In this document: piece after piece, positions 22,412 to 46,481 of the stretch | How the letters are laid out: every line of letters starts with the position of its first letter | How positions within the stretch are numbered: the stretch's first letter is position 1 | NCBI GenBank assembly: GCA_049999805.1 | Contig: JBNGIO010005800.1 | Location: forward strand, 1 to 64,000 | Length of the DNA stretch: 64,000 nt | Source of the DNA: Folioceros fuciformis | Taxonomy: Eukaryota | Direction: 5' to 3' | The notes under the pieces: generated by a model | Database searches by the model: none | What the model was told of the DNA's origin: nothing | What the model saw: the letters and a program-made list of their open reading frames with translations, nothing else | Position numbers and translations under genes: made by a program

Positions 22412-22492
22412 GTTGACATGGCCGAGTTGGTCTAAGGCGCCAGATTAAGGTTCTGGTCCGGAAGGGCATGGGTTCGAATCCCATTGTCAACA
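22412..22492 (+). tRNA. tRNA-Leu(AAG)
   Basis: Acceptor stem GTTGACA/TGTCAAC plus discriminator A; A-box TGGCCGAGTTGG; anticodon arm CCAGA-TTAAGGT-TCTGG; long variable arm; T-loop GGTTCGAATCC. Confidence 0.95.
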
Positions 22493-26490: not shown

Positions 26491-29400
26491 ATGCTGGTGT
26501 CTGCCGGATGGTATGCTGCTCCAGGCGCTGACATTCACAAACCACAAGTCTCGCTGATGCTCTGTCTTCCTCCGTGGAGGCTGGCAGGAACTTTTGGGAA
26601 AGCTCCCTCGTGTTTGATTCGAAGGATCATCCCGCTAGCAGAGCATGGCAGCAGCTCGGCAAGGAGGCCAGGTCGACCAAGGGGAAGTCCAGCTGCAGAA
26701 GGCGGGTCTCCCAGTGAGGTTCATCGCCAGGAGCTCCCATGGCGACAATTTTTTCGGGACGCCACAGGCTTGCTGGATAGCAGGCAACGAAAGAGAAGCT
26801 CCCGATCTCCAGACTTCAGTCACAGGGAGTCCCAGCAGGTACTTCGGATGGAGGAAAGCCAAAAACCATCTCGGGCGGACGCGCAGCTGGCTACTCTTGA
26901 TGTGGAGATGGGCCATTCGGCTCTTTCATCTCGCGGGAGCCAGCGTGATGATGGTGATTTCCGCAGGTCTGCACTTTACGGAAGGGGGTTGAAGGCTGAA
27001 ATTGTGAGCAGATTATGTCGGCAAGGGAAGCTCAGTGTGGCCGTTGAGGCTCTGGGAGTTCTGGTGCAGACTGACTGGTGTGGAGACAGATCTCTCTTTC
27101 TTATGCTCCTGAGAGAGTGTGTGGGTAAGAAGGATCTGCCTCTGGGTCGCCGTGTTCACGCTCTTGCCGTGAAGAAGGGGTCTGAGTCGGACACGTTCTT
27201 GTGCAATCATGTTCTGCGAATGTATGCTTCTTATGCTCGGTTGGAGGAAGCTATGGATGTGTTCTCCAAAGTTGCCAAATTAGACGCATTCACGTGGTCT
27301 GCCATAATCTCTGCCCATGTGAAGCACGGACAAGACAAGCAAGCCTTGCGACTGTATTATAGTATGCGGAGCTCGAGGGTGAAGCCAGATGGGCACGTGT
27401 TTGTGGCAGCTCTTCAGGCTTGTGCTAGGGGAGCAGACTTGAAATCTGGGCAGCAGGTGCATGCTGATCTCTTGGCTAGCAGCATTGAGCCGAATCTGTT
27501 CGTATGGAATGGCTTAGTGGACATGTATGCCAAATGTGGCAGCTTGGAAGATGCTCAAAGGGTGTTTGATGGGCTCGACGAAAAAGATGTTGTGACATGG
27601 AGTGCCATGATTGCAGGATATTCCCAGAAGGGCATGGGGCTGGAAGCCCTTGATCTCTACAAGGCTATGCAAGATGAAGGCATTGTAATACCCAATTCTG
27701 TGACGTTTGTTTGCCTCCTACAGGCTTGTGCAAGTGTGGGCACTGCTGCTTTGGAGAAGGGAAAGCAGCTCCACGCGCAAATTAGTGAACGAGGACTTCA
27801 GGCTGATGTAGTTGTAGGTGGGAGCCTGGTAAACATGTATGCCAAGTGCGGCAGCATTGAGGATGCTCGGGGTGTGTTCGATAGACTAGGTCAAAAAAAT
27901 GTGGTGACGTGGAGTGCTATGATAGCAGGATACTCCCAGCAGGGAATGGGGCAGGAAGCTCTCCATCTTTACAAAGCCATGCAGGAAGAACGAATCGTCG
28001 CACCTGATGCTGTGACATTTGTGTCCCTCCTGCAGGCATGTGCAAGTGTTGGCACTGCAGCTTTGGAGACGGGAAAGAAGCTTCACTTAAAAGTCAAGGA
28101 GCAGGGGCTTGAAACAGATGTCTTTGTATCAAGCAGTTTGGTAAACATGTATGCAAAATGTGGAAGCCTAGAGGATGCTCAATCAGTATTTGATGTCCTT
28201 CGTGAAAAAAATGTGGTAACCTGGAGTGCCATGATAACAGGGTATTCCCAGCAGGGCAAGGGGCAGCAAGCCCTTCAGCTTCACAATGCTATGCTAGAAA
28301 AAGGTTTCTGTGGACTGGACTCTGTTACATTTGTGTGCCTGTTGCAGGCATGTGCAAGTGTTGGGCACTCAGCTTTGGAGAAGGGGAAGCAGCTTCATGC
28401 ACAAATTAAAGAAGAAGGCCTTCAGAGCGATGCATTTGTAGCCAGCAGTTTGATCAACATGTATGCAAAATGCGGCAGCCTAGTGAATGCTCAGAGCGTA
28501 TTCAACAAGCTTGGACTGAAAAATGTGGTCGTTTGGAACGCGATGATAGCAGGGTATTCCCAGCAGGGCATGGGGCAGGAAGCCCTTTGTATTTATACAA
28601 CTATGGAAGAAGAGGGCATGGTTGCGCCTAATTGTGTGACGTTTATGTCCCTCCTGCAAGCTTGTGCATGTCTTGGCCCACCAGCTCTAGGGAAGGGGAA
28701 GCACCTGCATGCACAGATACAGACACGATCGCTTCAACTTGATGTGCTTGTAGCCAGCAGTTTGGTCAACATGTACGCAAAGTGTAACAGTCTTCAAGAC
28801 GCTCGGGAGGTTTTTGATGGTATTGTTCAGAAAGATGTAGTGACGTGGAGCACCATGATAGCAGGATATTCCCAGCAGGGCGAGCTACAGGAGGCCCTCC
28901 ATCTTTATTGTGCTATGCAAGAAGACCAAATGGTTGTTCCCGATTCTGGAACATTTGTGTGCCTACTGCAGGCGTGTGCAAGTGTGGGTGCCCTCGCTTT
29001 GGAGAAAGGGAAGCAGCTTCATGTGGAAATTAAAGAGCGAGAGCTTCAGGCCGATGAGTATGTAGCCAGCAGTTTGGTGAACATGTATGCAAAGTGCGGC
29101 AGCTTAGAGGATGCTCGGGCTGTCTTTGATAAACTTGATCAGAAAAGTGTTGTGATGTGGAGTGCCATGATAGCGGGCTACTCCCAGCAGGGCATGGGTC
29201 AGGAAGCCCTGTGTCTTTATGGAGCTATGGAAGAACAGGAGGTGGTTGCACCCAATTCTGTAACTTTTGTCTGCCTTCTGCAGGCATGTGCAAGTGTGGG
29301 TACCCCGGCATTTGAAAGAGGGAGACACCTTCATGCCCAGATTAGAGAGCAAGGACTTCAAGCCGACGTGTTTGTTGCCAGCAGTTTGGTAAACATGTAT

Positions 29401-30672
29401 GCAAAGTGTGGTGGCCTAGAGGATGCTCAAAGCGTCTTTGACGGGCTTGTTCTAAAGAATCAGGTCACGTGGAGTGCCATCATAGCAGGATACTCCCAGC
29501 GCGATATGGGCCAGGAAGCCCTTTATCTATACAGGGCGATGCAAGAAGAAGGCATCGTTTCACTCGATTCTGTTATGTTTGTGTCCCTCCTCCAGGCATG
29601 TGCAAGTGTGGGCACCCCGGCTTTGGAGACGGGGAAAGAGCTTCATGGTCTTATAAGAGAACAATCACTTCAATCAGATGTGTTTATAGCCAACGGTTTG
29701 GTAGACATGTATTCAAAGTGTGGCAGCCTAGAGGAAGCTCAGGCCGTTTTTGACAGACATCATCAGAAAGATGCAGGAATGTGGAATGCTCTTATAGCAG
29801 GGTATTTCCATAAGGGTATGGGACAGGAAGCCCTTCGTCTTTACAGGAACATGCGAGAGGAAGGTAATGCACCGAACTCTACAACATTTGTGTGCCTCCT
29901 TCAGGCGTCTGCAAGCGTGGCGTCTTTACATCTAGGAAGGCAGCTTCATCTGCACCTTAAAGAGCAAGGTCTTCAATCTGATGTGCTCGTTGCTGGAAGT
30001 TTGATAAATATGTATGGGAAGTGCGGTAGCATGCATGATGCGCAGCAGGTGTTTGAGGAATTACCCAAAAGGGATATTGTCACTTGGAGTGCATTGATCG
30101 CAGGGTACACGCGTCAAGGGGACAGTGAGAAGGTATTTGACCTGGTTTCAAAAATGAGACAGGAGGGCATTCAGCCAGACGCTATCACGTTCCTTAGTAT
30201 ATTAACAGTATGCAGTCATACTGGTCTCGTGGCGAAGGGGCGACAGTACCTTGAGGACATGAGCAAACAAGATGGCATCATTCCCACAGCTGACCACTAC
30301 ACTTGCATGGTGGATCTTCTCGGCCGAGCAGGAGAACTTGACGAAGCGCTAGATTTAGTAAGGAAAATGCCTGTCCAGCCGGATGCTGCAGTGTGGCACA
30401 CTCTACTGGGTTCTTGTAGGAAGTGGAGCAACGTTGAGGTGGGACGCCATGCTTTTGAAGAAGCCCTGAAGCTAGACGAGGCAGATGCTGCAGCATATGT
30501 GTTGATGTCAAGTATTTATACTGGTGCCCAGATGTGGGAGCAGGCACAGGAGATGCAAGCGAAGAGAATAAGAACCAAGTCATGGAAGCAGCCAGGCGAG
30601 AGTTGGTGGACAGACATGGATGGATTGGTCCATAGTTTCTTGGTTGGTCATCCCGGGGGGAAAGAAGGATGA
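26491..30672 (+). CDS. PLS-class PPR RNA-editing factor, 1393 aa, about 9 PLS triplets plus E domain and PGESWW box, no DYW
   Basis: 312-nt (104-aa) periodic triplets (P motifs at 27901, 28213, 28525, 28837, 29149, 29461, 29773). Ends HYTCMVDLLGRAG...VWHTLLGSCRKW...KQPGESWWTDMDGLVHSFLVG then a stop shortly after. Tandem paralogue of 22747-25533. Confidence 0.94.
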   Translation: MLVSAGWYAAPGADIHKPQVSLMLCLPPWRLAGTFGKAPSCLIRRIIPLAEHGSSSARRPGRPRGSPAAEGGSPSEVHRQELPWRQFFRDATGLLDSRQRKRSSRSPDFSHRESQQVLRMEESQKPSRADAQLATLDVEMGHSALSSRGSQRDDGDFRRSALYGRGLKAEIVSRLCRQGKLSVAVEALGVLVQTDWCGDRSLFLMLLRECVGKKDLPLGRRVHALAVKKGSESDTFLCNHVLRMYASYARLEEAMDVFSKVAKLDAFTWSAIISAHVKHGQDKQALRLYYSMRSSRVKPDGHVFVAALQACARGADLKSGQQVHADLLASSIEPNLFVWNGLVDMYAKCGSLEDAQRVFDGLDEKDVVTWSAMIAGYSQKGMGLEALDLYKAMQDEGIVIPNSVTFVCLLQACASVGTAALEKGKQLHAQISERGLQADVVVGGSLVNMYAKCGSIEDARGVFDRLGQKNVVTWSAMIAGYSQQGMGQEALHLYKAMQEERIVAPDAVTFVSLLQACASVGTAALETGKKLHLKVKEQGLETDVFVSSSLVNMYAKCGSLEDAQSVFDVLREKNVVTWSAMITGYSQQGKGQQALQLHNAMLEKGFCGLDSVTFVCLLQACASVGHSALEKGKQLHAQIKEEGLQSDAFVASSLINMYAKCGSLVNAQSVFNKLGLKNVVVWNAMIAGYSQQGMGQEALCIYTTMEEEGMVAPNCVTFMSLLQACACLGPPALGKGKHLHAQIQTRSLQLDVLVASSLVNMYAKCNSLQDAREVFDGIVQKDVVTWSTMIAGYSQQGELQEALHLYCAMQEDQMVVPDSGTFVCLLQACASVGALALEKGKQLHVEIKERELQADEYVASSLVNMYAKCGSLEDARAVFDKLDQKSVVMWSAMIAGYSQQGMGQEALCLYGAMEEQEVVAPNSVTFVCLLQACASVGTPAFERGRHLHAQIREQGLQADVFVASSLVNMYAKCGGLEDAQSVFDGLVLKNQVTWSAIIAGYSQRDMGQEALYLYRAMQEEGIVSLDSVMFVSLLQACASVGTPALETGKELHGLIREQSLQSDVFIANGLVDMYSKCGSLEEAQAVFDRHHQKDAGMWNALIAGYFHKGMGQEALRLYRNMREEGNAPNSTTFVCLLQASASVASLHLGRQLHLHLKEQGLQSDVLVAGSLINMYGKCGSMHDAQQVFEELPKRDIVTWSALIAGYTRQGDSEKVFDLVSKMRQEGIQPDAITFLSILTVCSHTGLVAKGRQYLEDMSKQDGIIPTADHYTCMVDLLGRAGELDEALDLVRKMPVQPDAAVWHTLLGSCRKWSNVEVGRHAFEEALKLDEADAAAYVLMSSIYTGAQMWEQAQEMQAKRIRTKSWKQPGESWWTDMDGLVHSFLVGHPGGKEG

Positions 30673-31060
30673 GAGCGATGGAGAGATGTGGGGAATGAGA
30701 CACGCAGATGTCCTACGGGCAAATGGATATCGGCAAGTTGCCGATTTGAAACTCGAAATTTGCCGTTCGAACCTATATCAGATGGCTCGTGAGCTTTCTG
30801 GAGTTCATGTCCGTTTATCAGCTGTTTTCTTTCTGAAGTAAATTCTTAACCTCAGCCGCTTGTTTGTAGAAAAAACAATCCTGCAATTTGTTTCTAGAGT
30901 GATGTGCATTAATAGATCTCCCCACTTCGAAAGCACAGGCAGTGACAGTTGTCTCTGAGCTCTGCCGAGGTGCTAGAGACGCACATTCGTCATAACTGCC
31001 TCGGAGGGAAGCAAACCGGCCGTAGTAGTCGCCACAGCTGCTCGCGCCACGGACTCTCTC

Positions 31061-31333
31061 GTGCGAGACAGTGCTCTCTGGAAAGGTGAGTGGAAACTGA
31101 GAATCAGTGACCAAATCTTGCAGTTGCAGTGTAGCGAACTAGTGGCGCTGGCCGCAGCATCTACAGCTAGTATGGTGACTGCTGTGCTCATCAGACAGCG
31201 CGAAGAGAAGAGAGGTTACTATGACGATCTGGTACTGGAGTATCTCTACCTTGTCCATGATGTGCGAACCAAATTGAATCTCACCCATAGGGAGCTAGGC
31301 CCTGTTCTTTCCATGGCATCAGTGGTAGGTTAG
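31061..31333 (+). other. Possible orphan single-TM ORF or pseudogene related to 35233-35841
   Basis: Hydrophobic LVALAAASTASMVTAVLI, then RQREEKR and a helix that aligns by eye with the 35233 protein. No clear upstream ATG. Confidence 0.3.
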
Positions 31334-31627
31334 TATCACCCCGAGTGAAGGTGCGATCTCTGGTCTTCAGCTGGATCGCTGTCGGCATGGACATGGCGGA
31401 TTCCATAAGACGGCAATATGAGAGTATGTTGTGCTTTCAAAGTTGCGATTCTTACTATTTCCAATTCTTTGGAAGTGGTGATTCGTTTCATGAATGCTTT
31501 GATCGGCCATGAGAGATTTTCTTCCTACTTTACTATTACTATAGTTGGGAGTAAAAAAATATGTATTTATTTTAGAAAAAATCAGGAAGAGAAAGGGTTA
31601 CTACCACTGGAGTTACTGACATTGCCA

Positions 31628-31795
31628 ATGGCATTAGCCAACATTGTCTCTAACATGGCATTAGCCAACATTGTCTCTAACATGGCATTAGCCAATGTTG
31701 TCTTCCAATATATGGCATTAGCTAACATTGTCTTCCAATATATGGCATTAGGCAACATTGTCGTTCTTGTCATCCAATACATGGCCTTAGCCAAT
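31628..31795. repeat. 27/30/39-bp tandem repeat (atggcattagccaacattgtc core), about 6 units, in AT-rich probable TE debris
   Basis: Units start at 31628, 31655, 31682, 31712, 31742 and 31781. All unit lengths are multiples of 3. Confidence 0.9.
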
Positions 31796-33166
31796 GCTTG
31801 TTGTAGAATAATGAATGCTCTTTGCAAAAAAAATGTTATAATATATAAAAGAAGAAGACTAAGCCCATTTTCCCTATTGTGAACCGTCTTAGCATAACAC
31901 TTAAAAAACTTGGAAAATACCTTGCACATGGCCCTACGGGTCTCGATAAAGGTGTGTCTAGCCTGTAGAGTGTCGAGGGGTGTACTTGTGAACCTTGGAT
32001 GATGCACTTCCATCGTTTACTCAACCTAGAGAGTTGAGGACAACATGCTCGCTGACTATGACTCGTGTAGGGACAATTACGACCACATTAACAATAAAAA
32101 GTTTGTTGATCTTCTTGGACGAGGAAAAGGTCAACCCAAAGACAAACTCCCAACCAAACAACGGGCAAGATGAGTACTAGAGTTATTTAGAGGTGCCTCG
32201 CAATTGCTAGAAGAGGGAGAGCAGGCTAAAGGGTAGACCAAACCAAGGCAAAATCTCATCGCAGTATAAAATGTGGTTGGTGTGATTAGGAAAGCTTGGA
32301 TGCTAGGTCAAGCAAAGAGCCAAGAGCCTGCGCCCTTTCCTGGGCATGAACAAAGCCGCTCCATAACGGGGTTGGGGATAGAAGAATATAGAAGAAGATT
32401 AAGTTGCATCTGCGTGTATTTCTTCTCAAAAACAGAAGCTTGGAGCCCCTGAATTCCCACCACAAGAAGAGATGAAAATTAAGGCATAGCAATCCTAGCT
32501 GGAAAAGAAAGAGAGTCCTTAGCCGATCTTTGGGATACCTACAAAGGGAGGACACCCTTCTCAACACCAAGCACAAAATATATGTATACTTTCAAACATA
32601 GTATGTGGTAAGGCCTTTTTCACAAGCCTTGTCTATTGGAACTTGAAATACTTGAAATCTTCTGATTACCTCTTTCCTCTATTTGTATGTATGTATAATT
32701 GTTTTTCTTTAGGTTAGGTGTACTACAAAAATATGTATGCTATTCTAAAGATGATCATGGGTAATCTTGTGTGATATAAATCATACTTGGAATGAAACTA
32801 ATTTTTCATAGAGCAGAGCTTTTAAGATTAAAAAAAAAATGTGGTTTCAAAAACTCTTCCAAGCAAATCACTAGCAACGGAATGCGTTCCTTTAGTGGAG
32901 CATGGTTTGCTTGGATTGCAGAGTTTTTGTAGATTTGGGTGAGAACACTTAGTGACACAGCTCACAGCGCGTTTTGGTTCAGGTGCTAACACTCGTTCGA
33001 AGTGACATTGCGGCCGGTAACCCAGGCTGCCAGACTCGCTGCCGCCGCTCTGGGGGGCGAGGGGTCTCAATCTCTGGACTGCGATTCGGGCACTCCGGAA
33101 GGTCCCGAGCCCGGGGCGCTGGTCCAGGCCCCGGCGGTGCCACACCTGGCAGTTGGAATCGCGGAC

Positions 33167-34787
33167 ATGAGAGGTGTTGCAGCCGGGTGAGTGCACTGGC
33201 AGACGGGCGTGCCAGCATCCACTGATTCGCAGAGGAAACCTGAAAATTTGGTGCAAGGCGGCGGCGCTCAGGCTGCTCGGCAGAAAGATTCCGGAGCAGT
33301 CGGAAATATTGTTGTGTGCGATCGTGCACTTCCGGTGTGTTCCCTTCTGTAGAGTTATGGTGGCGAAAAAGACGGAAAGCGAGCAGAGTGTTGAGTTTCT
33401 GCCATTTCCAAATGAGCTCTGGTCGGTGGTGACAGTAAGAGCCTCCACTGCTTGCCGCTCAGCCACAAGAATGCTACGCTGTTGCAATCTGAAGCATGCT
33501 GCAGGGGCGAGGCTTTCTTCTTCTAACTTTGTCGTGCGCGCTATATAGGTTGGAGCAGACAGCCGAGCACTTCGAGAATTTGCAAGTGGTGCGCTTTCAG
33601 GAGCTTTGTCCAAGACGTTTGTTGCTCCTCTGGAAACTGTGAGGTAACCACGTGTACTATGCTGAAATCTTACTTCGATGACCGCAGATTGAGCTTCTTG
33701 CGCAGCTGCTGACAAGAAATGAAAAAAAACTGTGGCAAGCGGATGTGTGAGACGCTTATTGAGTGGACAAATTGGCAGGACCCGGCTGATTGTGGGTGTT
33801 GGACCAAAGAGCATCGGTGGCAGTCTTAAGGAAATACTACGAGAGCAGGGCTGGCGGGGCTTGTTTGCCGGGAACGGGATCAACGCATTTAGGACTGCTC
33901 CCGGTCAAGCAGTCGAGCTCTCCACATACGAGGCAGTGAAGCGCCATCTCCAGAGCTTCCAGGACCATTGGAGTCGAACGGGGCCACCGCAGATGCGCTT
34001 GCTTGGCCACAGTGTGGACATTCCAGTTTCCTTGATATCTGCTCCAGTGGTGGCCGGTGCCGTTGCCGGGGTTGTCAGCACCCTTTCCTGCTACCCCCTG
34101 GAAGTGCTCAAGGTTAGCTCTTGATTCATAACCTTGTTAATAAAACCTTCACATCACTAGGGTGATTTGCACTGCTTTGGTTCATGGCGAGTTTCTCATC
34201 TCGACTGCAGGACCGTTTTACTGTACATACAGGTGCCTACCAGAGCATTTGGCACGCTCTCGGAACGATAATTCGTGAGGAAGGAGTACGGGCCATGTAC
34301 AGGGGGCTTACTCCAACCATGGTTGGTCTGGTCCCTTACTGTGCATCCTACTATGCTCTCTACGATAGCCTCACATTAGGATATAAGAGCCGAGCAGAGA
34401 AGAAACATTTGGCACCCTGGGAAACTCTCTTTATTGGAGCTTTCGCGGGTACACTTACTCTCTCACCCTTTGCTGGGCTGTTTTCCATCCCTTGAAGTTT
34501 GGACTGTTGTCCTTGACCGTGGTGTCTGCTCACGTACAGGCCTTGGCTCCAGCGTCGCTACGTTTCCTTTGGAAGTCGCCAGGAAACGGCTGATTGTGGG
34601 GAGATTTCCAACTGGAAGGATACCACCTAACATGGTGAAAGTTCTGGTGCATGTGTTTCGAAAAGAAGGGCTGAGGGGCTGGTACAGAGGTGTAGGAGTT
34701 AGCTGTTTGAAAGTGATGCCCTCTTCTGGACTATCGTGGATGATTTACGAAGCATGCAAAGACGCGCTTCATGTCTGTCGAGACTAA
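33167..34787 (+). CDS. BTL1: Mitochondrial carrier family adenine-nucleotide transporter, BTL1 (Brittle-1-like)
   Basis: Firm exons 33549-33643, 33779-34112, 34211-34448 and 34540-34787; probable upstream exons 33167-33186 and 33353-33434. Three PxExx[RK] signatures (APLETVR, YPLEVLK, FPLEVAR), plus REFASGALSG, RTRLIVGVG and SCLKVMPSSG. Confidence 0.9.
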
Positions 34788-35232
34788 TAAACATTGCACT
34801 CTCAAACCGGATACACCACCGTGACGCCAAAAATTTTCGACTATGGATGGCCCTTGGAAATCAATTGTGTTCTTTTGGCAGCTAGTTTCCGGGCTTGTGA
34901 CGGAGTTTAAGCCCGTTTTCCCTGGGAGATTTTATTTGTCTCACATGGTAGCATAGTTCTTTGCCGTCCCATAAAGGCCGCTAAACTTTCTCTTCTTAGC
35001 CCTGCAATTATATATTCAGTATGTACAAGGGAAGGAAAAGACGTTCTAGACTCTTCCTCGGTCTTACAGGGCCTATAATTTGCACACAGTGACCATTACA
35101 GGCTGAATTTCAGTCAGCCACAGCACATGCCTCCCACAGTGCTCGGCAATCGCACATCCGCCTTGGACCTCGTTCACTCAGGCCGAAGGTTAACGCTCGT
35201 CTTGGAAGAAGCTCTTCAAAGGAGACGAGAAG

Positions 35233-35841
35233 ATGGGCGTGTTGCAGAATCTGCTCCTCTGTGATAAGCGGGAACCTGGAGCGCTGCTTTGGACGGTATT
35301 GGCCACAATAAGTGTTACGACATGTGCCGTTTATCTGCGGACTCTGTGGAGGATGCGTGAGTACGAGAGGAGAATGTCCCTCGTCGTGTCTGAGAACGGA
35401 CTTCTAGCGCAGTTGACAGACTGTGTGATGGATATCCACAGCACCCTGGACAGCATCGTGACGGTCATGAAACCAAACCTTCCAATGAAAGCGGTCCACG
35501 ACCTCCACAAGGCGAGCGAAGAAAATGAAAAGTTCCTCGACGAGATGGCAGCTCCAATCAAGGTGCGGTTCCTGTTCTCTCTTCAAGGTCGTGCGACTCC
35601 GGTCTTGAAAGTTTTGCGGTGATCTCCGGATCATCGGTATGAGCATAGAATCGCTGAAGTGCGAGGCTCTTGTTGGAGAGCGAAGAAATCTGTGCTCGAT
35701 TACCCCGCATTTATACGGTGTTTTTCCTTGCTCGCTCTGTCCTTTCAGTTTCAAGTCACTGAAAACTCTGAGCAGGATGAGAGCGAGTTCAACTACCATG
35801 CAGTACAAGTTGAGCCACAATTCAGTACATATTGGAATTGA
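35233..35841 (+). CDS. Hypothetical ~140-aa single-TM protein, 2 exons
   Basis: ATG at 35233; exon to 35562 (AAG|GT); polypyrimidine acceptor cctttcag; exon 35749-35841 in frame. N-terminal TM (ALLWTVLATISVTTCAVYL), helical middle, acidic tail. Confidence 0.55.
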
Positions 35842-37067
35842 CGACTATAAGGGATGTCTGTTTCCGGAAGATGATCCGCTCAAGATCTGATTGCTTCTCC
35901 TGTTTTCGACAGTCGCGATCTGATATTCGAAGAACTTCCGGCAGGCAGAAAGATCTGCAGTCAAGCTGCTTTCATCTGTTGTATGTGATACTAGCAAGAT
36001 CGTTGTAGGGACGGTGCAATTCTTGAGTTCTGACTGCGACTTCTTGCTTTATGTGAAATTGCCCTTGCGTTTTTAAATTCAAGAATCTCTTCTTTGGCAC
36101 TCACCAGCTTTTGAGCACTGAATGCATTGAATTCCGTTGATTGACTTGTCGTAGATAGCTCGCCGATTTTATCACACTTCACTGAAGTTTACACGAATCA
36201 TGATTCCCCGTCTGTGTCTCTACCTCCAAGTGGGACAATGGTTGTTTGAGTGACAGGAGGCTCAGTTCGAAGCACCGATCGGCAGACAGTTCAACAGCTG
36301 GAAATGAGACATGCGCTTCAAAGTGGAAGCGTCGACTCCTCACTAATTACTAACTCAGTCTGACGGATACCTACATGTGCTTGCAGATTGCTAGTTTTTC
36401 ACGTCTTCTGTTGGATGCAGTGTTCCCGCTCGTTGCACAGGCAACAGAACCTATACCGCTGGGCAGCAGAGGCACTCAAGCCTGCAGGGCAGAGGTGGAG
36501 AATGCCATGGTAAGCACCCTCCCCTCGCCTTCATCTACAGGACAATATCCGCCTCGTACAGAGGAAGAGGAATCTCAAGAAAGAGAACTTGCAAACACCA
36601 CGACAAAGCAGCACATGTTTGCAGGATCCGTTAATCGATCGCGACTTTTAGTTTTTTTTTTTCCCGTTGCTGCTCAAGGACTGCACATGCGAAATATATA
36701 TACATAAAATATTTGTCATAATGATTATATATTTATGCAAGTATTATTTAATCATATATTAATATATAAAATACTATAATATCAACAATAAGATATTGTA
36801 TGATCCATTAGCTTGAAGACATGCTACGTGCGGGATACCGGTGTGTGCTCCCAGAGGTTGATTGATAGTCAAATTTGATTCGCCCTACATCCTAAAATTA
36901 GGTTTAGATTTGAGGTAGCGAACGTCTGGTGTAGCGTCGCGTACTGTATCGGGCTGGTAATGCGTCCTTATAGCAGCCTTATCTTACATGGAGTGTTTGG
37001 GTTATGTTTTATTATGATTTTGTAAGCGTTTCCCATGCGGCCAGTTGTATGGTTGAATGCTAGTTGA

Positions 37068-38684
37068 ATGGCGGGGAGCAGCAGTGTGCACGCGGCCATG
37101 GCCGCCTGCACAGGCTGCGCGCTCGTCTCGTCGCGCTGCAGCTGGGAGCCGTCCGTGCCGCTGCATTTATCCGCCATCTCTCGCGCGCGCCTGCGTTGCC
37201 CGGGCGGCTGGGCTGGTGGCTCAACCCGCCTGCATTTCTGCTGGAAAGCCCCGAGACCTCAGGCGTGCGCAGGTTCCTCTCCATCCCGGTCTCCATCTTC
37301 ATCGCCGTCCCCGTCGCGGTCCCGGGCCCGGCAGGAAGCGCTGTCCGGGCTGTTGAGCAATGTGAAGCCTGGCGCAGTAGCGGGAGCGGCGGCGGCGGCG
37401 GGAGTCGGAGTCGCTGCCATCATTCTCCTGTCCTGCCTGCTGCACAAGGGGCCTGCTTCCGCCCGGCTCGCCAATGCTGCGGTCGCCAGAGTCGCCAATT
37501 CAGCTTCCCGCAACGCGGGTGTGGCAGGTGATGGCCGGGATGCTGCCCCGGCCATAATGCCGGTCCCGGCGGCCTGTTCGTCCGCTTTCTTCGTGCACGG
37601 GGCGGCTCGGGAGGCGGCGGACGTGCCCCCGGCCTACTCCATGCTCGTGGTGGGGGACCCCGTGGCGGGGAGCGTCGTGCGGAACCGGGTCTCGGTTTTT
37701 GTGGCCTCCAAAAAACAGGAGCAGGAGGTGGAGGAGGGGGAAGGGGAGGACGAGGCGTTTGCAGTGTGGTTGGAGGCGGTGAAGGATGATGCTGCCAAGC
37801 TCGGGGTTAGTAGGGAGATTTTGGAGTCGGCGCTGGAAGGGGTGACGGTGTCGCGGAAGATTCTCTTCTTGAAGGAGAATCAGCCGGAAGTGAAGCTCTC
37901 GGCGCAGGAGTATCTCGGGCGGATGGTGAGCGAGTACAGGGTTGCCAAAGGAGTCACGTCTTTTCTGGAGAATGAGGAGTTGCTGCAGCAGGTGGCTTCG
38001 ACGTATGGTGTTCCTGCGCCTGTGCTGGCAGCCATCTGGGGGGTGGAGAGTAGCTATGGTGGCTTTCCGGGGAACTGGGATGTGATTCAGGCTCTTGTTA
38101 CCATGGCTTACAAGGGGGAGAAGGATCCCAGGCGGGCTGCGTATTTTCGGCGGCAGGTGATAGATGCTCTTCTTATCATGCATGAGGGGCACGGTCCGCC
38201 TGGGGGGAAGAGGCTGGTGGGGTCTTGGGCTGGGGCTATGGGGCAATGCCAGTTCATGCCTGATAGCTTTCTCAAGTTCGCCGTGGATTATGATGGGGAT
38301 GGGAGGAAGGACATTTGGGAGTCCCGACCTGATGTCTTTGCATCCATGGCTAATTTTCTCTCGCAGCATGGATGGAAGGAAGGGGCTCCCATTGCACAGA
38401 AGGTTGTGGTTCCTAAGAAGATAGACAAGGCCGTGTTAGGGCTGAATGTGAAGAAGCCCGTGAGAGAGTGGAAGCGGAAGTATAGCATTTCTAAGGCAGA
38501 AGGGGAACCAGAGTTGCTTCAGGATGACATGGTGAGTCTGGTGGCGCCGGATGGCCCCTCCGGTGTCGCATATTTGGTGTGTGACAACTTCCGGACCATC
38601 ATGCGGTACAACCCCTCGTCTTTGTACTCTCTAGCCATCCTCCAGCTGGCCCAATTGATTTCCCAAAGGTCAGGGAGGCTGTAG
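37068..38684 (+). CDS. mltB: MltB-family (SLT_2/GH103) lytic murein transglycosylase with transit-peptide-like leader and TM anchor, intronless, 538 aa
   Basis: NQPE, YGVPAPVLAAIWGVESSYG (catalytic Glu), RRAAYF, GSWAGAMGQCQFMPDSF, EF-hand-like AVDYDGDGRKDIW, ASMANFL..HGW and NFRTIMRYNPSSLYSLAI. N-terminal ~90 aa is Ser/Arg/Ala-rich, followed by AVAGAAAAAGVGVAAIILLSCLL. Confidence 0.93.
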   Translation: MAGSSSVHAAMAACTGCALVSSRCSWEPSVPLHLSAISRARLRCPGGWAGGSTRLHFCWKAPRPQACAGSSPSRSPSSSPSPSRSRARQEALSGLLSNVKPGAVAGAAAAAGVGVAAIILLSCLLHKGPASARLANAAVARVANSASRNAGVAGDGRDAAPAIMPVPAACSSAFFVHGAAREAADVPPAYSMLVVGDPVAGSVVRNRVSVFVASKKQEQEVEEGEGEDEAFAVWLEAVKDDAAKLGVSREILESALEGVTVSRKILFLKENQPEVKLSAQEYLGRMVSEYRVAKGVTSFLENEELLQQVASTYGVPAPVLAAIWGVESSYGGFPGNWDVIQALVTMAYKGEKDPRRAAYFRRQVIDALLIMHEGHGPPGGKRLVGSWAGAMGQCQFMPDSFLKFAVDYDGDGRKDIWESRPDVFASMANFLSQHGWKEGAPIAQKVVVPKKIDKAVLGLNVKKPVREWKRKYSISKAEGEPELLQDDMVSLVAPDGPSGVAYLVCDNFRTIMRYNPSSLYSLAILQLAQLISQRSGRL

Positions 38685-39753
38685 CACTCATGTACTACTA
38701 CCGAAGCTCCCGAAGTCTATTCATGCCAAGATTTGGAGACACTCTACTGTCCGGGGATGGTTGCCATAACTACTGCACCAACTATGGCATCGGTGTGGCC
38801 TGCCCACGTGTTGTCATGCATCACTTCCTCCCTTCATGGGTTGAAGTCAATCCTGGCTGTGCAAGCTACTTGGCAATCAACCTCCCTGCAGGCTTGGAGA
38901 AAGTGGGAGAGCCTTCTGGATATGTCATCACCTCATCAGCCCCTCTGTTCTGATTCAAGATGGTCCTCCAAATTAGAAGCGTTTTGGGGTTTGCTCATGC
39001 CCGGGGCATGCCTTGTGCTGGTGTTCATTCTGCTTCACACTGTTGTTGTGGCTGTGGAGTCCATGTCCTTCGGCTTTTTCCCCGTGGTGCTGCGATTGCA
39101 GCCAAAAGAACCTCGTAGTTGAGGGTTGCAGCTTTTCTGGAACAGTTCTAATTGGTGCCCGTGAGGTCGAGCTGCAGTTCTCCGGCAACAAGGGAGGAAC
39201 TCCCTTTCTCCTGACTTCCTTCCGACATGGGCAGGCGTCCTTGGGACGTCGGACAGTTGGCAGTTGCCTCCCACCCTTTTGGACATGGACATCAGGAATG
39301 TATCATTTTCTCAGCTTTCACCTTTTGTTCCGTTTCAAGGGGAAAGTGGGACGCCTAACTAGATGAAGATTGTTAGGTGCGTGATATACCTACCCATAAC
39401 TTTATTGAACTATCTCAGTACCTCATGCTAATCGTTTAAGGCAAAACAGCAAATCTGCTCCTGAGTGAACATTTTCGCCTCATGGGCGTACTACGCAACC
39501 TCTTGTTCAGTATAAATTCAGAGATGCCGTTGTAGAATTAATCGATAATAGATTCTGATGGGTAGAATTTCTCAGATCTCGTCTCATCGGCTGTCACCTG
39601 ATCCTTCGTTATCAGTGTAAAGGGTAGGCAACGTGATAGCTTGCTGTTGTCTCGTGAACAATCCTAAAGCCTCAACTACGTTGGCTTTGTGTTATTGTAA
39701 TTGTACAGTTTTTATTTAACAAATTATTTAAGTTTACATTGGTTTGTACGTGT

Positions 39754-39826
39754 GGCCGCATGGCCCAATGGATAAGGCGCTGGTCTACGAAACCAGAGAT
39801 TCTGGGTTCGATCCCCAGTGTGGTCG
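39754..39826 (+). tRNA. tRNA-Arg(ACG)
   Basis: 73 nt. Acceptor GGCCGCA/TGTGGTC plus G; A-box TGGCCCAATGG; anticodon arm CTGGT-CTACGAA-ACCAG; T-loop GGTTCGATCCC. Confidence 0.95.
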
Positions 39827-39913
39827 TGATTATGCTCAGTACGGTGGAGGACGATGGAAGTTTTGCGTTTGACTTAACCTGTTTTGTAAAAGGTTCACTC
39901 TCATTTCTCTCTA

Positions 39914-40171
39914 TTGCGATGCGTGTCGGGTCAGGTCCATGGCTACTACAAATTCCTAGAGCCTGGAAAAAGCGGGTCCGTTGCCTATCGCGAGGCCAAG
40001 TGCACGACAGGCACCGGCGAGGACGACTGCGCCTTCTGCCTCACAACGCTTGACGAAAACGTGGAGGAAATTTGCCGAACGGCCCGTGGACCGGAAGTGA
40101 ACTACGTGGACTGCTCCATCAACTACAGAGACCACTCGTTCTGGCGCAACAGAATCTCTTACCATATATGA
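39914..40171 (+). pseudogene. Gnk2/DUF26 (stress-antifungal) domain, C-terminal half only
   Basis: C-X8-C-X2-C motif (CTTGTGEDDCAFC) followed by C....GPEVNYVDCSINYRDHSF. No signal peptide or N-terminal half in frame. Confidence 0.7.
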
Positions 40172-40289
40172 CACACGCATCACATGCCACATGCTTGTAC
40201 CCGGTCAAGTCTCCATATTGCTCTCGAAGTGGTAAATAAGTGGTACCAATGTATGTATCTGTGGCTTCTGGACTTCAAATATTTTATAT

Positions 40290-42180
40290 ACTTATTTGTA
40301 GTAACTAAGTGAGGTGCTGTGCATTCTTTTGCGTTCCTCTTCAGCAGCACGTTCTTCAACATGAGCATGTCCTCACTCATAATTTTTCTCATTGGATAAT
40401 GCATCCTGCCAAACTTCAAGACTTTTGTACTCTTGCCTGGCCTTTCCATCACTTGTCTCTTCGGATAAAGGCACCCTACAGACCTCCTGACGTTGTACGA
40501 CGATGGGCAAGGAGTGGCCATGGGGTTCCCAGCATCCAAGAAAGTGTGACGATACTCTCGAGCGACTGATTTTTCCCTTTATGTACACCTGATGGGATGA
40601 GATTACCATGTGCATGTGTACCGGATAAGTAGCTTGAACTTCATGCTGCCTAGCAAGCAGATTTGGTGGCACCTGTTGCTCGAGATGAGAAACTGCATTT
40701 CTCCTCGAATGCTCTGTTGTTCTACAGGGAGCTTCTTAGACGTGAGACGGTTTCTCATGAGCACGACAAAGTGTAGGATGCCTTGCCTACCTGTTACAGG
40801 ATTACGTACCAATGGACACATGTATCACGGTTGCCTAAACAGCAGATAGAGATGATGCTGAACTCTAGACACCAGCATCTCTATGGTGGAGCAAAGCATC
40901 AACGACTTGCTGAGCATCAACCATTCTCCCAACTTTTCATACATGCCTGTCAGACTGTCGGCTATCGGCAGATCCACCCAGACCCCTTCTCTTCAATCTA
41001 CGCGTGCAGTGGGCCCACGACGCTTGAAGCCCGCGACGACAGGCCCATGTAACGCTGCCACATTTGAAGGAGGGACGCAAATGTCATGCAGTGGGGTCCA
41101 AACCATTGCTTGTTCTAGCGTAGCACTAGCACTGTAACGGCAAAGCGCTTCCAGGCCCCTGCCCTGTTTGGTGTACCCTGCAATTAGCGCACTCCATACA
41201 TCTCGCTGACCACGTCCGTCAGAAACACCGTGAGCCCCTTGTACGCTGCCATACTTTGAACACATTTGTTCCAGACTGTTGGCTGCAGATAGATCTGCTG
41301 GCTCCTCTTTGCCAGATCTGGGAAGCCACAATTGCACATGCCAACAGGAAACAAACACGTCGGGGGATCAGAAACGCCCTCCGCTGGCAGAACACCATGA
41401 TGACAAATCGCCTCCTGAGTCATACCCTGTTGCGAATATCCTGCTATCTTGGCACTCGTCATCGCTATATCTCTTTGATTATGTCCGTCAAACCCACTTG
41501 CCGCACTTTCCAGATTCCCACTCTCGACACACATGTTCACCAAACCAATGGTCACAGACAAATCGGCTTCCATGTCCTCGCTTTCTACTTACCATTGACT
41601 TGATTTCCTCTTTCACTCTGCAATACATGCAGGAGGCTCCTCCCGCATAACCAAGACCAAGTGCCTATTCTCATAGGACGCACACAAACATCAAGGAATC
41701 AGGTGCGGTGACGCCTTCTTCTCCTATAAGGGCTTCCTGCCCCATACCCCTTCTTCAAATATTCTGCGAATAGAGCAGCCCACGTTACGACGCAGTTTTC
41801 ACCAAGTCCATCATTTACCTCCTGAGCATCCTCCAAGCTGCCACACATGCGTACATGGGCACCAAGAAGTTGGTTACACCCACCTCAGCTTCGAGTCTTT
41901 GTACTCTGATATGCACTAGCAGACGGTTCCTCTTCTCCAGCGCGAGGGTACCGACAAAAGCACATGCCTGCAAGAGGCAAACAAAAGTCAAGGCATTGAG
42001 TACAGAAATGCTTCATTCTTCAAAAACACTGTAGACACTGAAGACCATCCCCGTCCCGACCCATACCCCTCTCGTCCGTATACCCTGCAACAAGAGCATT
42101 CCATGTCACCACATCTTTCTGACGAAGTCTGTCAAACAATATCTTATCATCTTCCACGCAGCAACACTTAATGCCTATAG
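40290..42180 (-). pseudogene. Decayed PLS-class PPR gene (same family as the tandem pair), many frameshifts
   Basis: Fragments LFDRLRQKDVVTWNALVAGY, GLVNMCVESGNLESA...IAGYSQQGMTQEA and MCSKYGSVQGA...VWSALIAGYTKQGRGLEAL; possible E-domain/PG-box remnants near 40300-40550. Confidence 0.85.
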
Positions 42181-44881
42181 TCCTTTTCATGTTTATCATG
42201 GGCAAAAAGAATGAAAAACCGCATGCCAGATTCAACCACCCCTTCAAACACGTCCAAACGGTCTTGCAGCCAGCTATGAGCAGCGTCCAGTCGCAGGTCG
42301 TGGTGCAAGGGAACATACCTACTCACACCCCGTTACCAGCATAAAAGCATTACACGGCAACTCCTCACAAGATCCCACTTCAGTAAAAAAAATTCATGAC
42401 AAACATAAAATAGAAATTTGAAAACACCAGCCTCTGTGTCCGCCAGAGATTCAGAGCCGCAGGAGCTTCATCGAGATGGCCCCCAACGGGAGCTTGCTGA
42501 GTGATCCTGACACCCGCAGGCCTGCAGGATGTGAAAGGGGCGAAACCATAACAAGACTTACTTACTCTCAAGGTTTCCCCCCTTTCATGCCCTGCAGCCC
42601 GACAGGAGTTTGCCGACGATCCTCACTTCCCCCCTCGGAACCTCCTACCTTGCCTGCCAACCCTGGAGGTTAGGGTGGGGTCTCTACACATCTGTCACCA
42701 TAACCACCCTTGGTCAACACATTCGGTGTGGGCTTTCCTGCAAAGGTCCTGCGCTGCACCTGACGGACCCATTATCCTACACCCATCGCTCCATTGAAGT
42801 CAGTTGATTGAGAGGTCAAAATGACTGTCATGGATCGAACCTTGTGTGAGTGGATGCCGCCGGCCAATCCCAGACGACCCTTCCGTGAGCTGCAAGTCTG
42901 TGCCCAACCTCACAACGGAACGACTGTGGAGAGCACCAAATACACCTATCACCAGCGCATGGCGTGCCCCATTTTGTTTTTAGCCAAAATGATCAGGATA
43001 CATTAACTGGAAAATATTTATGCGACTCGTACATCTAGCGAGGATTAAAAACAAAAAGTATATGTAAACCACTTGGAACCATAGAGTCCTAAGAATAAGA
43101 AAGGAACGCACATTAGGCTCAGAAGTCGAGGTTGGGCCTGGGGGCTATAGGCATCCTTATTGGAAAAAACACATGCTCTCCTTCAAGATTCTTCTATTGC
43201 TAAGCACACTAAGTACTTGTCTCGCTCCCCTTGGAGAAGGGAGCCAAACTTAGCCTCTCGCTCGGCCAAGTGTTAAGCGTTCTGCATTGCACCAACAACG
43301 TTCTCTATCGCAATGCATTTTGTGCAACCTCTTCTTACCGTTTTAGGTTGCAATCTGCAGTGAATTGTTTGGCGAGAACACGAGCTTCAAGTTTTGTTCT
43401 CCGATTGCACATCAAGATGCTTCCTCCTCGCCACGGGTGATCACGCCTCCATGTGCCTGAATGGAGGCAAACGAAGTCAAGGAATTGGGAACAGAGATCC
43501 CTTCAGTTTGCATGACGATATAGAGACGGATTAAGGGCTTCCCCTTCCGCACCCTGCCGGCTATGCCAATACCTTGCGATCAGGATACTCTTAAGCTATC
43601 ATAATAATCCCTAAACACAAACAGAGACAAACATAATCGCCTAGACGGCTCTTGGCGAGCTTTGTCGATGCCATTTCCGATGACGAGACAAGACCATTCC
43701 GCTCCAGTGTTAGAACTGAGCTCAGAGACCCCGGACTAGGACAAGGGTACATGCTTGGTACATGTAATGTATCAAGCATATGCGGGATACGATTTTCCTA
43801 AAGTCTCCGGGACGTAACATCTGGCGAGCTTTTGCAGTCGAGTGTGAGTAGAACACAAAAGATCCGCTCAATACACGCATGTGCAGCGCCGCCGCACATC
43901 ACAAGCTCTGGAAACTGTATCAGAGCCCCGAGGGCAGACTCCTCCAGTTCCTGTTTTTTTGCTGATACGTTTCTCCAAGATTCAAACTTCCGAGTGTGGC
44001 CAGCTTTCTGGTCGATCGTCATCCAGGCATTATGTGTGAGCCTCAATCCCTCTGCTTTCAACTAAACTGTCAGTTATCGATATTTTCTGCGTCCCTCTAG
44101 ATCCCACCTCAGGTGCATCTCTGGTCACGGACAGTGAGCGAGCTGTTGTTTATGGGCCTCCCCTGGCCCTGCGCCAGTTGGGACAAGTTGCCTGCCAACA
44201 CAAGCTACGGTCCCCTGCTCTGAACTGCTCGGCTTAGCTGGGCTCTGCCTTTGCCTCACAATTCAAGTGCTCAAGTCCCTGCCGGATGCGAGCAACGAGC
44301 GATGACGGAAGTGCATGCTGGAATCATGAGTACACCAAGGAGTTTTGCGTTGGATGGTCAAGAATGGATTTTATAAAAACAAAACTATTTTTAAAAAATG
44401 ATCAAAATGAAAATAATTGTGTAGTTTATTCAAACTAAATATATACTTAATCAGAGGGCTCGGCTGTCGTTTTCCTCTCCTCGTGCCTTCAAGTACACGC
44501 CGTACCAACCAAGCTGAAGCCACCCCGGGTGTCCCATGTGCCAAGTCAACTCGGTTTCAAGTCATACAGTCAGTCCACGAGGCCGAGCACGATAATGGGA
44601 AGATGCTGGGTGGCTTACTGGGCAACTGAAGTCTTGAAAAAGTCTGTTCACTTTCGAAATTTGCGAAACAAGGCTGCACGCCATCACACATTAGAAAACT
44701 CGTTAATCCTCTGCAATATGCAGAGTTGAAGTCCGGCGTCACAAACACAGTGACCGTCAAGTTATTCGTATACCACACACCCTATCCATTGGCATATCAA
44801 CAGCTCAGCTCAGCCAGACTTGCCCAGTCCACAGATGTTACATCACAAAACTAAGAAGGGGGAACGGCGTGAATGAGCTCC

Positions 44882-46481
44882 TTAATTGTAGTACGGGCCC
44901 TGGGGCTGCGAGGGATAGCCAGGAGCTTGAGCGGGATANNNNNNNNNNNNNNNNNNNNNNNNNNNNNNNNNNNNNNNNNNNNNNNNNNNNNNNNNNNNNN
45001 NNNNNNNNNNNNNNNNNNNNNNNNNNNNNNNNNNNNNNCCCTGAGGAGGGTAGCCAGAAGCCGGAGGAGGGTAGCCAGAAGCCGGAGGAGGGTAGCCAGG
45101 TTGTACAACAGGGTAAGGCTGGTAAGGAGCACCCCCAACAGTCGGAGGAACGGCGTTGTCTAAGCGTGACATTTGTTGAGCTTGAGGGGGTCGCATAGGC
45201 CCGTCACCGACTTTCCCATCACGCTTGTCCAGTTCCACTTTGTGCTGAGTCTGCAGGACGAGGTCAGAGATGAGTTCGCGAATCAAACACCTGGCACATG
45301 AGACAGAAAATAATCCCAGTGCAGACTCTTACCTGCATACAAGCGCAGACCCTACAGACAGGAAAAAAACGAGGGCAGTCAGTCAGGCATTGCCGTAACT
45401 GTTCAGAAAGGTGTAGGTACGTACAGTTGTGGACAGGCCACAGGGAAGGGTGAGAGAGAGCCTACGTGCAATAAACTGCGTTGGAGAGGCAGTTGAGGAT
45501 CTGTGAGGCCTCTGATAGCTCCTCACTCCCCACAATTGCAGCGACGATGGAGAAAATGCAAGCAACTTGAGACAAGCAGAACATAAAGCCCTGCAGACCG
45601 ACCACACTGCTGTGAGGACTTGCATCCCAGCATACGTGTGTGAATAAGAGGAGAGAAAAGCAGGACGAGGTTGCCCTACAATGATGCAGTTGTCGCAAGC
45701 TGTGGTCTGAATGTTAAACTCGTCTTGGATGAGAAACCGAGTGGACTGTACCGAGTTTGCAAAACAGCACCACACCTGGACAAGAAACACGCTCGAGGTG
45801 AGACCCCTCTGCCCTGCGCACTAGGCCTGCACCCCTCCTCTCCGTCCCACAGTCCGTAACCATGTAACACAGACCTCTGTGGCCAAGCAGAGTTCCGGAC
45901 ACTGTCTCTCCCCGCAACGACCACTGCACGGCATGTATCCTGCACAGCAAACGTATCTGCAACATGCCAAGCCGTTGTGTGGTTCAAAAGCGTGAGGTAT
46001 ACCAAAATTAGTTTTTATGGCCACATGAATCTTGGTGCACAGCAGCTCACAATCCCCTTCACCTGTTCATGTCACCGTACAGAGCCCTCTTCCGGAGCAT
46101 ATACGAGGCACATGGTGAACTGCAACGCAGCGCAAACCAGGAATTAACCTACAGCGTCCCCATCCAAGCGGACCCAACACCGAAGACGACAACTTAGGTA
46201 CTCACCACCACATCGCGAAGCAAAAATCTGTAAACCATCGCCAGCCACCAGGTTTGCACAGAAAGAAACAAACGCACAAGGGGATGATGAGCGTGGATCA
46301 GTAAGAGTCTGCAGGCACCTGCTTCCACACACGACTTCAATCAAAGCCCAAGCCCCAGCCCCAGCTCCAGCATACAACACATACATGGGCAGTCGGCAGA
46401 GGCAGTGCCCATTAGATCCGTGTGCCATAGATTGCGGTACTGCTGCCGGGCCTGCAACTTCTCCACATCCTCCTGCTTCAT
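44882..46481 (-). CDS. PLAC8 (Cys-rich) family protein with GYPPP-repeat Pro-rich tail, multi-exon with a 22-nt microexon
   Basis: MKQEDVEKLQARQQYRNLWHTDLMG | YFCFAMWC (46227-46206) | SPCASYMLRKRALYGDMNR | YVCCAGYMPCSGRCGE..CPELCLATE | VWCCFANSVQSTRFLIQDEFNIQTTACDNCII | GFMFCL... | VCACMQ | TQHKVELDKRDG...GYPPPAS repeats. N gap inside the repeat. Confidence 0.92.

Follow-up and report, generated by a model that had tools for sequence, protein, structure and literature searches.

The DNA analysed here (hereafter the window) comprises positions 1 to 64,000 of contig JBNGIO010005800.1 in the Folioceros fuciformis assembly GCA_049999805.1. On its forward strand lies a single-exon open reading frame (ORF) predicted to code for the precursor of an MltB_2-type lytic transglycosylase, in which a long N-terminal leader, a hydrophobic segment and a linker precede an SLT_2 catalytic module. 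This gene, its parts and the neighbouring genes, which include those of a receptor kinase, a phosphofructokinase (PFK), three pentatricopeptide repeat (PPR) proteins and a mitochondrial carrier, are collected in Table 1.

Table 1. Features of the MltB gene and its surroundings in the window (aa, residues of the MltB product; LRR, leucine-rich repeat; nt, nucleotides).
Feature	Positions	Strand	Basis
MltB_2-type lytic transglycosylase precursor, single-exon ORF, 538 aa plus stop	37068..38684	+	ORF calling, Pfam, NCBIfam
Leader, aa 1-100, Ser/Ala/Arg/Pro-rich and nearly acid-free	37068..37367	+	composition
Hydrophobic segment, aa 101-125, predicted single membrane anchor	37368..37442	+	Kyte-Doolittle
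Linker, aa 126-230, from anchor to catalytic module, acidic patch at its end	37443..37757	+	composition, hydropathy
Linker motif SSAFFVHG...PAYSMLVVGD, aa 171-197	37578..37658	+	alignment
SLT_2 catalytic module, aa 231-529 (N-terminal helical, catalytic and alpha/beta parts)	37758..38654	+	Pfam, AlphaFold2, Foldseek
Codon of the catalytic Glu327 (IWGVES)	38046..38048	+	alignments, WGMES of SltB3
Putative EF-hand-like Ca-binding loop, aa 407-422 (Asp407, Asp409, Asp411, Asp422)	38286..38333	+	alignment
Contig of run X1, 2447 nt, collinear with the genome	37053..39499	+	0 differing letters, 0 gaps
Spliced mitochondrial-carrier-family gene, upstream neighbour	33434..34787	+	Mito_carr, GT..AG joints
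tRNA-Arg(ACG), 254 nt past the end of the X1 contig covering MltB	39753..39827	+	tRNA calling
LRR receptor kinase, 802-aa single ORF	9760-12168	-	family scan
ATP-dependent PFK, 531-aa single ORF, complete	16682-18277	+	family scan
PPR protein with E motifs, single ORF	19423-22380	-	family scan
tRNA-Leu(AAG), between the first two PPR genes	22412-22492		tRNA calling
PPR protein with E motifs, single ORF	22687-25533	+	family scan
PPR protein with E motifs, single ORF	26476-30672	+	family scan

The MltB ORF is the longest of the ten ORFs of at least 80 residues that overlap positions 36500-39300, and an in-frame TGA lies immediately 5' of its ATG. A first-pass annotation made from the sequence alone had described it as intact and intronless, and the coordinates given there, which yield 538 residues, proved exact. 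We compared the contigs of a public sequencing run, X1, with positions 28001-48000, uncovered bins not being counted as evidence. One contig covers the entire ORF together with 15 nt on the 5' side and 815 nt on the 3' side and is intron-free throughout; its ends are not those of the transcript, and read depth was not used as evidence. X1 contains a fraction of 0.82 of the words sampled from 36500-39300, and two other runs, X2 and X3, contain next to nothing of the MltB gene. Elsewhere, X1 contigs skip GT..AG intervals at 33434/33549, 33641/33777 and 35560/35747 as well as five CT..AC intervals between 45589 and 46385, and 8 of the 15 joints listed (out of 32 rows) are of the intron type. We read X1 as a spliced-RNA assembly of the same organism, in which the MltB ORF is uninterrupted. 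On the opposite strand, an ORF of 289 residues (37500-38369, -) lies entirely within the conserved SLT_2 coding region; we took it for a by-product of GC-rich coding sequence.

The product matches the Pfam family SLT_2 (PF13406) with an E-value of 1.5e-97 and 326.8 bits, against a gathering threshold of 24.3, from profile position 2 to 292 of 292. No domain other than SLT_2 was found in the 538-residue protein by Pfam at E-values up to 0.1. As the protein ends nine residues past SLT_2, it has no separate C-terminal peptidoglycan-binding domain, in agreement with the earlier description. With 292.8 bits it passes the cut-off of 248.45 for the NCBIfam entry MltB_2 (TIGR02283), the type to which its core had been assigned beforehand. 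It fails the cut-offs of the E. coli-type MltB equivalog (TIGR02282, 214.7 bits against 281.4) and of PRK10760 (149.9 bits against 449), and these scores place it outside the E. coli MltB equivalog.

The full SLT_2/MltB motif set expected from the first inspection was located, with IWGVES at aa 323-328, GSWAGAMGQCQFMP at aa 385-398 and DYDGDGRKD at aa 407-415. Glu327, the predicted catalytic residue, is invariant in all 42 rows of an alignment of plant and bacterial proteins and lines up with the WGMES Glu in Pseudomonas aeruginosa SltB3; the window protein retains all 16 columns that are invariant over these rows. The four Asp residues of the putative Ca-binding loop are invariant across 20 green sequences and align with the Ca ligands of SltB3. 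Their spacing is that of the SltB2 ligands, for which three Asp followed by one Asp 11 residues further on are described in the available text of PMC12547810. For family 3, the same source describes a catalytic Glu positioned by a Tyr and an Asn, and Tyr520, Asn515 and Gln393 of the window protein correspond to residues it names near that Glu and subsite +1. In the 20 green rows, Tyr520 is invariant and Asn515 nearly so, and both align to SltB3 residues.

Structural comparisons gave a concordant picture. All eight matches at E <=0.001 in a search of PDB sequences were family-3 enzymes, the best being SltB3 (E 6.9e-57, aa 228-529), followed by SltB2 (E 3.8e-50), SltB1 and E. coli Slt35. We modelled aa 228-538 with AlphaFold2 from the 42-row alignment and obtained a mean predicted local distance difference test (pLDDT) score of 96.8 and a predicted template-modelling (pTM) score of 0.93. 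All eight Foldseek matches to this model at E <=0.001 were SltB3, SltB2, SltB1 or Slt35, with template-modelling (TM) scores of 0.81-0.87, and the top one was SltB3 (5ao8; E 5e-24, TM 0.87). The model predicts the three-part fold of the family, with N-terminal helical, catalytic and alpha/beta parts. By these sequence and model data, the window protein is a bona fide family-3 (SLT_2, MltB_2-type) lytic transglycosylase.

The best solved relatives, P. aeruginosa SltB3 and SltB2 (PDB 5anz, 5ao8 and 7qvd), superpose on the window module with a TM score of 0.87 and are 37% and 32% identical to it by fold, respectively. They share with it the catalytic Glu, the Tyr, Asn and Gln residues and the four Ca-site Asp. 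They differ from it at both ends: SltB3 and SltB2 have a cleaved signal peptide and a C-terminal PG_binding_1 domain (PF01471), whereas the window protein starts with a eukaryotic leader, followed by a predicted membrane anchor and ~100 linker residues, and lacks PG_binding_1. Since this domain is the hallmark of subfamily 3B (SltB2, SltB3), which distinguishes it from subfamily 3A (MltB, SltB1) in the available text of PMC12547810, the window protein is not a strict 3B member; it has a 3B-like core devoid of a peptidoglycan-binding domain, like most of the bacterial matches listed, which carry SLT_2 alone. With the 3A enzymes E. coli MltB/Slt35 and P. aeruginosa SltB1 it has in common the fold, the EF-hand-like Ca site and the lack of a peptidoglycan-binding domain, and E. 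coli MltB is attached to the membrane, as is predicted for the window protein. E. coli MltB/Slt35 is more distant from it, with an E-value of 9.6e-31 and 29% identity in the fold alignment.

The N-terminal 230 residues set the protein apart from its bacterial relatives. The first 100 contain 22 Ser, 14 Ala, 10 Arg and 9 Pro, no Asp and 2 Glu. For the first 90, the span given in the first-pass annotation for a leader rich in Ser, Arg and Ala, the counts are 20 Ser, 13 Ala, 10 Arg, 9 Pro, no Asp and 2 Glu. By composition, this leader appears transit-peptide-like. The strongest hydrophobic 19-mer spans aa 107-125, with a mean Kyte-Doolittle (KD) value of 2.43, and the linker ends in an acidic patch of 7 Glu and 1 Asp within 17 residues (aa 214-230), so that the single membrane segment and the acidic linker were both borne out.

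The lipobox reading fared differently. E. coli MltB is a lipoprotein, and LLSC, at aa 120-123 inside the hydrophobic segment of the window protein, had been pointed out as lipobox-like. We rejected this reading because Cys123 is conserved in none of the nine other aligned green sequences (the sister sequence P0002 has ILLSS), so that no conserved lipobox Cys closes the hydrophobic segment as in a bacterial lipoprotein. Of 78 bacterial relatives, only 7 show a crude lipobox-like pattern upstream.

The same layout recurs in the green homologues. In all 17 full-length sequences we found a hydrophobic 19-mer (KD 1.45-2.43), which in 16 of them reaches at least 1.6, the usual threshold for a transmembrane segment, the remaining one being that of Closterium (1.45). 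Their first 50 residues contain 6-17 Ser and Thr and 0-4 Asp and Glu. In the 15 green rows in which the motif was located, 119-312 residues separate the hydrophobic stretch from the catalytic Glu. The corresponding distance, from the end of the hydrophobic leader, has a median of 106 residues in the 78 bacterial relatives, as against 202 in the window protein, indicating that the green proteins gained a linker. Part of this linker is patchily conserved: the SSAFFVHG...PAYSMLVVGD motif is common to the window protein, P0002 and three Sphagnum species and degenerate in three fern-like sequences, and the alignment shows it to be absent in Marchantia, Riccia, Ceratodon, Physcomitrium and Selaginella. 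Plant MltB proteins are nuclear-encoded and have an N-terminal extension with a single predicted membrane segment ahead of SLT_2, and all of this holds for the window gene.

In order to place the protein among its relatives, we combined several searches. A word-indexed protein search gave 1067 matches at E <=0.001 among 8000 candidates scored. Among the best 120 of these, transcript-derived proteins come first, followed by a Marchantia polymorpha 'membrane-bound lytic murein transglycosylase B' (58% identity over 57% of the query); the other named green matches are from two Riccia species, Ceratodon, Selaginella, Sphagnum and Cymbomonas, and named bacteria follow at ~43% identity. An exhaustive domain search collected 7171 proteins at E <=0.001. 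Its top 13 clusters, at 274-481 bits, are all green, and bacteria appear from 254 bits. Named members of these clusters are from Psilotum nudum, Diphasiastrum complanatum, Mesostigma viride, Chlorokybus atmophyticus, Closterium sp. and Physcomitrium patens (XP_024379744.1, isoform X3; P0125 in our set). The closest relatives are plant proteins, 51-69% identical in the domain and well above any bacterium.

In a scan of prokaryotes with one genome per species, 596 of 600 candidate stretches were confirmed and the best 80 were kept; a control search matched E. coli, Caulobacter and Corynebacterium among 14 genomes. The best 80 of the 596 loci comprise 53 from Alphaproteobacteria, 11 from Gammaproteobacteria, 5 from Bdellovibrionia (Micavibrio) and single rows of others. 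No cyanobacterium is among them, which does not imply absence from cyanobacteria. Within this set, the nearest named bacterial relatives are short alphaproteobacterial MltB_2-type proteins (Rhodospirillales, Azospirillaceae, Acetobacteraceae and others), 38-44% identical to the window module over its whole length.

We then built a quick tree of 134 rows and a careful maximum-likelihood tree of 56 rows and 354 columns (LG+C20 with posterior mean site frequencies; support given as ultrafast bootstrap/SH-like approximate likelihood ratio). The latter sampled every third locus and 10 unnamed representatives, and a full-length Diphasiastrum cluster member replaced a partial row. The two trees agree. 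In the careful tree, a branch with 99/98 support separates the green rows and one further sequence (P0216, see below) from the bacteria, including the alphaproteobacterial MltB_2-type proteins. Within the green clade, which also holds Mesostigma, Chlorokybus, Closterium and Cymbomonas, the 14 land-plant rows form a set with 100/99 support, made up of the window protein, Marchantia, Riccia, Sphagnum, Ceratodon, Physcomitrium, Selaginella, Diphasiastrum and Psilotum. The window protein thus belongs to one clade with the moss and liverwort proteins, apart from bacteria.

Within the land plants, the window protein pairs with P0002 (100/98), to which it is 61% identical over 391 columns and 69% in the domain. 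Neither the liverwort group (100/100) nor the moss group (100/98) nor the lycophyte/fern groups include this pair, which is joined to the mosses weakly (93/59). The window gene is therefore best read, as far as the tree can suggest, as a deep, poorly sampled embryophyte lineage of the plant MltB clade, grouping with neither liverworts, mosses, lycophytes nor Psilotum. It shares the layout of the Physcomitrium and Marchantia proteins (leader, single hydrophobic segment, linker and SLT_2 alone), and departs from them in the linker motif, which it has in common with Sphagnum, and in its lack of introns, the Physcomitrium gene being spliced by inference from its isoform.

Concerning the bacterial side, no sister group of the green clade gets clear support in the careful tree. 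P0216, a protein of 358 residues, stands on the green side of the 99/98 branch with a branch length of 1.19 and an odd composition. It could come from an unsampled alga or from a bacterium near the donor, or be a long-branch artefact. Because of the long branch and odd composition, we discarded it as a hint to the donor.

The genes around MltB are those of a plant. In a family scan, 6 of 14 long ORFs had a match, including a UPF0014 fragment, and a further 31 ORFs yielded two mitochondrial-carrier exons and one retrotransposon gag fragment. The Mito_carr matches are located in the ORFs 33723-34121 and 34380-34784, and the three adjacent PPR frames within 19423-30672 are 985, 948 and 1398 residues long. 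The PFK is about equally similar (~70% identity) to proteins of liverworts, gymnosperms and angiosperms; the names of its best matches would make it a chloroplastic PFK5. Together with the three large PPR-E genes and the compact arrangement of genes, this suggests by elimination that the source is a deep embryophyte lineage lacking close named relatives, most likely a hornwort. The plant neighbourhood that had been reported is present, in the form of the LRR kinase, the PFK and the PPR-E proteins, a spliced mitochondrial-carrier gene, tRNA-Leu and tRNA-Arg. N runs occur only at 4019-4118, 5489-5498, 44939-45038 and 61817-61916, so that no gap separates the MltB gene from those of the PPR proteins, the PFK and the kinase. 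The GC content at third codon positions (GC3) of the MltB ORF, 0.71, falls inside the range of its plant neighbours, from 0.34 (PFK) to 0.76 (kinase), and composition is therefore uninformative on a foreign origin. Given the gap-free plant neighbours, the X1 contig and this GC3, MltB is a resident plant nuclear gene, and contamination or a chimeric contig is very unlikely.

Two other observations concern these surroundings. The Retrotrans_gag fragment (57125-57550, +; E 1e-08) is the sole trace of a transposon among the scanned ORFs. At 28.0-30.3 kb, the contigs of all three runs (X1, X2 and X3) show many non-canonical joints, which look like cross-matches among PPR repeats or paralogues and not like introns.

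What would such an enzyme do in a plant? Most probably, the gene is a plant nuclear MltB that codes for a family-3 (MltB_2-type) lytic transglycosylase of plastid peptidoglycan. What the data show is its family, fold, active-site and Ca-site residues, layout, clade and plant context, together with the uninterrupted contig, whereas import, topology, activity on plastid peptidoglycan and a role in division are what we infer. After synthesis in the cytosol, the precursor would enter the plastid by means of its acid-poor leader rich in Ser, Ala and Arg. The hydrophobic segment (aa ~101-125) would anchor it in the inner envelope membrane with its N-terminus in the stroma, leaving the linker and the catalytic module in the intermembrane space, the topological counterpart of the bacterial periplasm. 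This is the compartment in which moss plastid peptidoglycan is reported to be located (PMC12681378, PMC8227023). There, by analogy with its family, Glu327 would act as the single acid/base that cuts the beta-1,4 bond between N-acetylmuramic acid (MurNAc) and N-acetylglucosamine (GlcNAc), MurNAc-beta-1,4-GlcNAc, without water, yielding a 1,6-anhydroMurNAc end, and the loop of Asp407, Asp409, Asp411 and Asp422 would bind a Ca ion. Cutting of the glycan strands may thereby allow the plastid wall to be remodelled and split at division. The link to division comes from the moss Physcomitrella patens, whose MltB has been tied to chloroplast division (Utsunomiya et al. 2021, Plant Mol Biol 107:405), a connection also named in the first-pass annotation.

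Several points weigh against this reading. The case for plastid targeting consists of leader composition and family membership. As positive charges flank the hydrophobic segment on both sides, the positive-inside rule does not fix the topology. The type of run X1 is a guess ('RNA?'), and the run is possibly the sample from which the window itself was assembled. Within the covering contig, the main ATG is preceded at a distance of 11 nt by an ATG in another frame (37057), from which an ORF of 99 residues (37057-37356, +) runs into the beginning of the MltB ORF. This may be a case of an upstream overlapping ORF; alternatively, transcription may in fact start downstream of this ATG. Lastly, the P. 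patens protein in our tree, XP_024379744.1, which is 45% identical to the window protein over 328 columns, lacks 44 residues (aa 284-327 of the window protein), including the catalytic Glu, and this row was not matched to the published PpMltB. The gap suggests an exon-skipped, catalytically dead moss splice form, and a moss gene with introns.

Among the other explanations, a retained gene with a changed job, serving another plastid function like Arabidopsis MurE or en route to loss, is quite unlikely. Such changes are on record, some plant homologues of peptidoglycan genes having other roles (AtMurE; PMC8227023). In the window protein, however, all catalytic and Ca-site residues are retained. 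The module is 69% identical to that of P0002 while the leader is not alignable, as expected if selection acts on the enzyme. Moreover, a contig of X1, a run that contains spliced forms of the neighbouring genes, covers the intact ORF. Furthermore, all surveyed hornworts are reported to have every enzyme of peptidoglycan synthesis (MacLeod et al. 2022, PMC8964177), which also fits the plastid reading if the source is indeed a hornwort.

Distinctly improbable, too, is a non-plastid enzyme, secreted or vacuolar, that would attack the walls of pathogens or, in a hornwort, of cyanobacterial symbionts, with the N-terminus serving as an endomembrane signal-anchor. The fully intact module could act on any peptidoglycan, and a mildly hydrophobic start (aa 1-19, mean KD 1.08) precedes the strong hydrophobic segment at aa 107-125. 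That start is, however, not conserved in the homologues, and a Ser-rich, acid-poor leader of ~100 residues is unlike a short signal peptide. The gene has been inherited vertically in a green clade that tracks plant relationships from Mesostigma and Chlorokybus to ferns and includes plants without cyanobionts, and the family has been linked in print to moss chloroplast division. Finally, an artefact in which contamination or a chimera put a bacterial gene into a plant contig, or else horizontal transfer in the very recent past, could claim the intron-free ORF and the 38-44% identity of the module to alphaproteobacterial proteins, and has a negligible probability in view of the plant genes on both sides of a gap-free stretch (no N run within 6 kb, the nearest being at 44939), PFK, kinase and PPR genes that are likewise single ORFs, a 230-residue N-terminal extension like in kind to those of 16 other green homologues, plant nearest relatives at 51-69% identity in the domain, far above any bacterium, and the 100/99 support of the land-plant clade.

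We thus favour the plastid peptidoglycan enzyme, and its ancestry raises a further question. The first-pass annotation had seen the core as proteobacterial rather than cyanobacterial. The former half of this claim agrees with the prevalence of Alphaproteobacteria among the nearest named bacteria in the best 80 of the 596 loci; the latter half is not addressed by the tree, whose rows include no cyanobacterial SLT_2. With the same limit, the non-cyanobacterial look of these relatives appears to match a report that most plant enzymes of peptidoglycan synthesis do not look cyanobacterial (Sato 2021, PMC8227023). A joint scenario would have green MltB come not from the cyanobacterial ancestor of the plastid but from an alphaproteobacterium-like donor, before the chlorophyte/streptophyte split. 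The protein would then have been rebuilt as an imported, membrane-anchored one, in which the plant-specific linker (with its SAFFVHG...PAYSMLVVGD motif) or the Ca loop might couple wall cutting to the machinery of envelope division or synthesis. The coupling idea is prompted by analogy with a modelled contact between SltB1 and PBP2 in bacteria. Taken as a whole, we regard this scenario as rather unlikely.

Among the titles listed by a full-text literature search, none dealt with plant MltB apart from one paper already found in connection with chloroplast division and peptidoglycan in moss. The available text of the review PMC10784329 makes no mention of MltB, transglycosylase, hydrolase or VanY. 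A term search did not find 'lytic' in PMC12681378, nor 'lytic' or 'anhydro' in PMC9434261, and PMC6403190 held nothing usable on the taxonomic spread of SLT_2. Overall, the interpretation first given to the locus is partly supported: it stands as regards the enzyme family, plant residency, clade and leader-anchor layout, and falls as regards the LLSC lipobox.

The window gene is a further member of a family already described in moss and annotated in Marchantia, and it raises no new question, since the moss family and its link to chloroplast division are already in print. What it adds is modest: a further lineage, a single-exon gene, whose compactness makes it easy to clone, and a patchily conserved linker motif, along with named evidence that one clade extends from algae (prasinophytes and early streptophytes) to ferns. 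It would also supply a degradative enzyme of the plastid peptidoglycan system from a deep land-plant lineage that has been poorly sampled. More broadly, a single MltB clade with a conserved layout of leader, anchor, linker and enzyme in prasinophyte and early streptophyte algae, bryophytes, lycophytes and ferns supports the view that turnover of the plastid wall, besides its synthesis, is ancestral in green plants.

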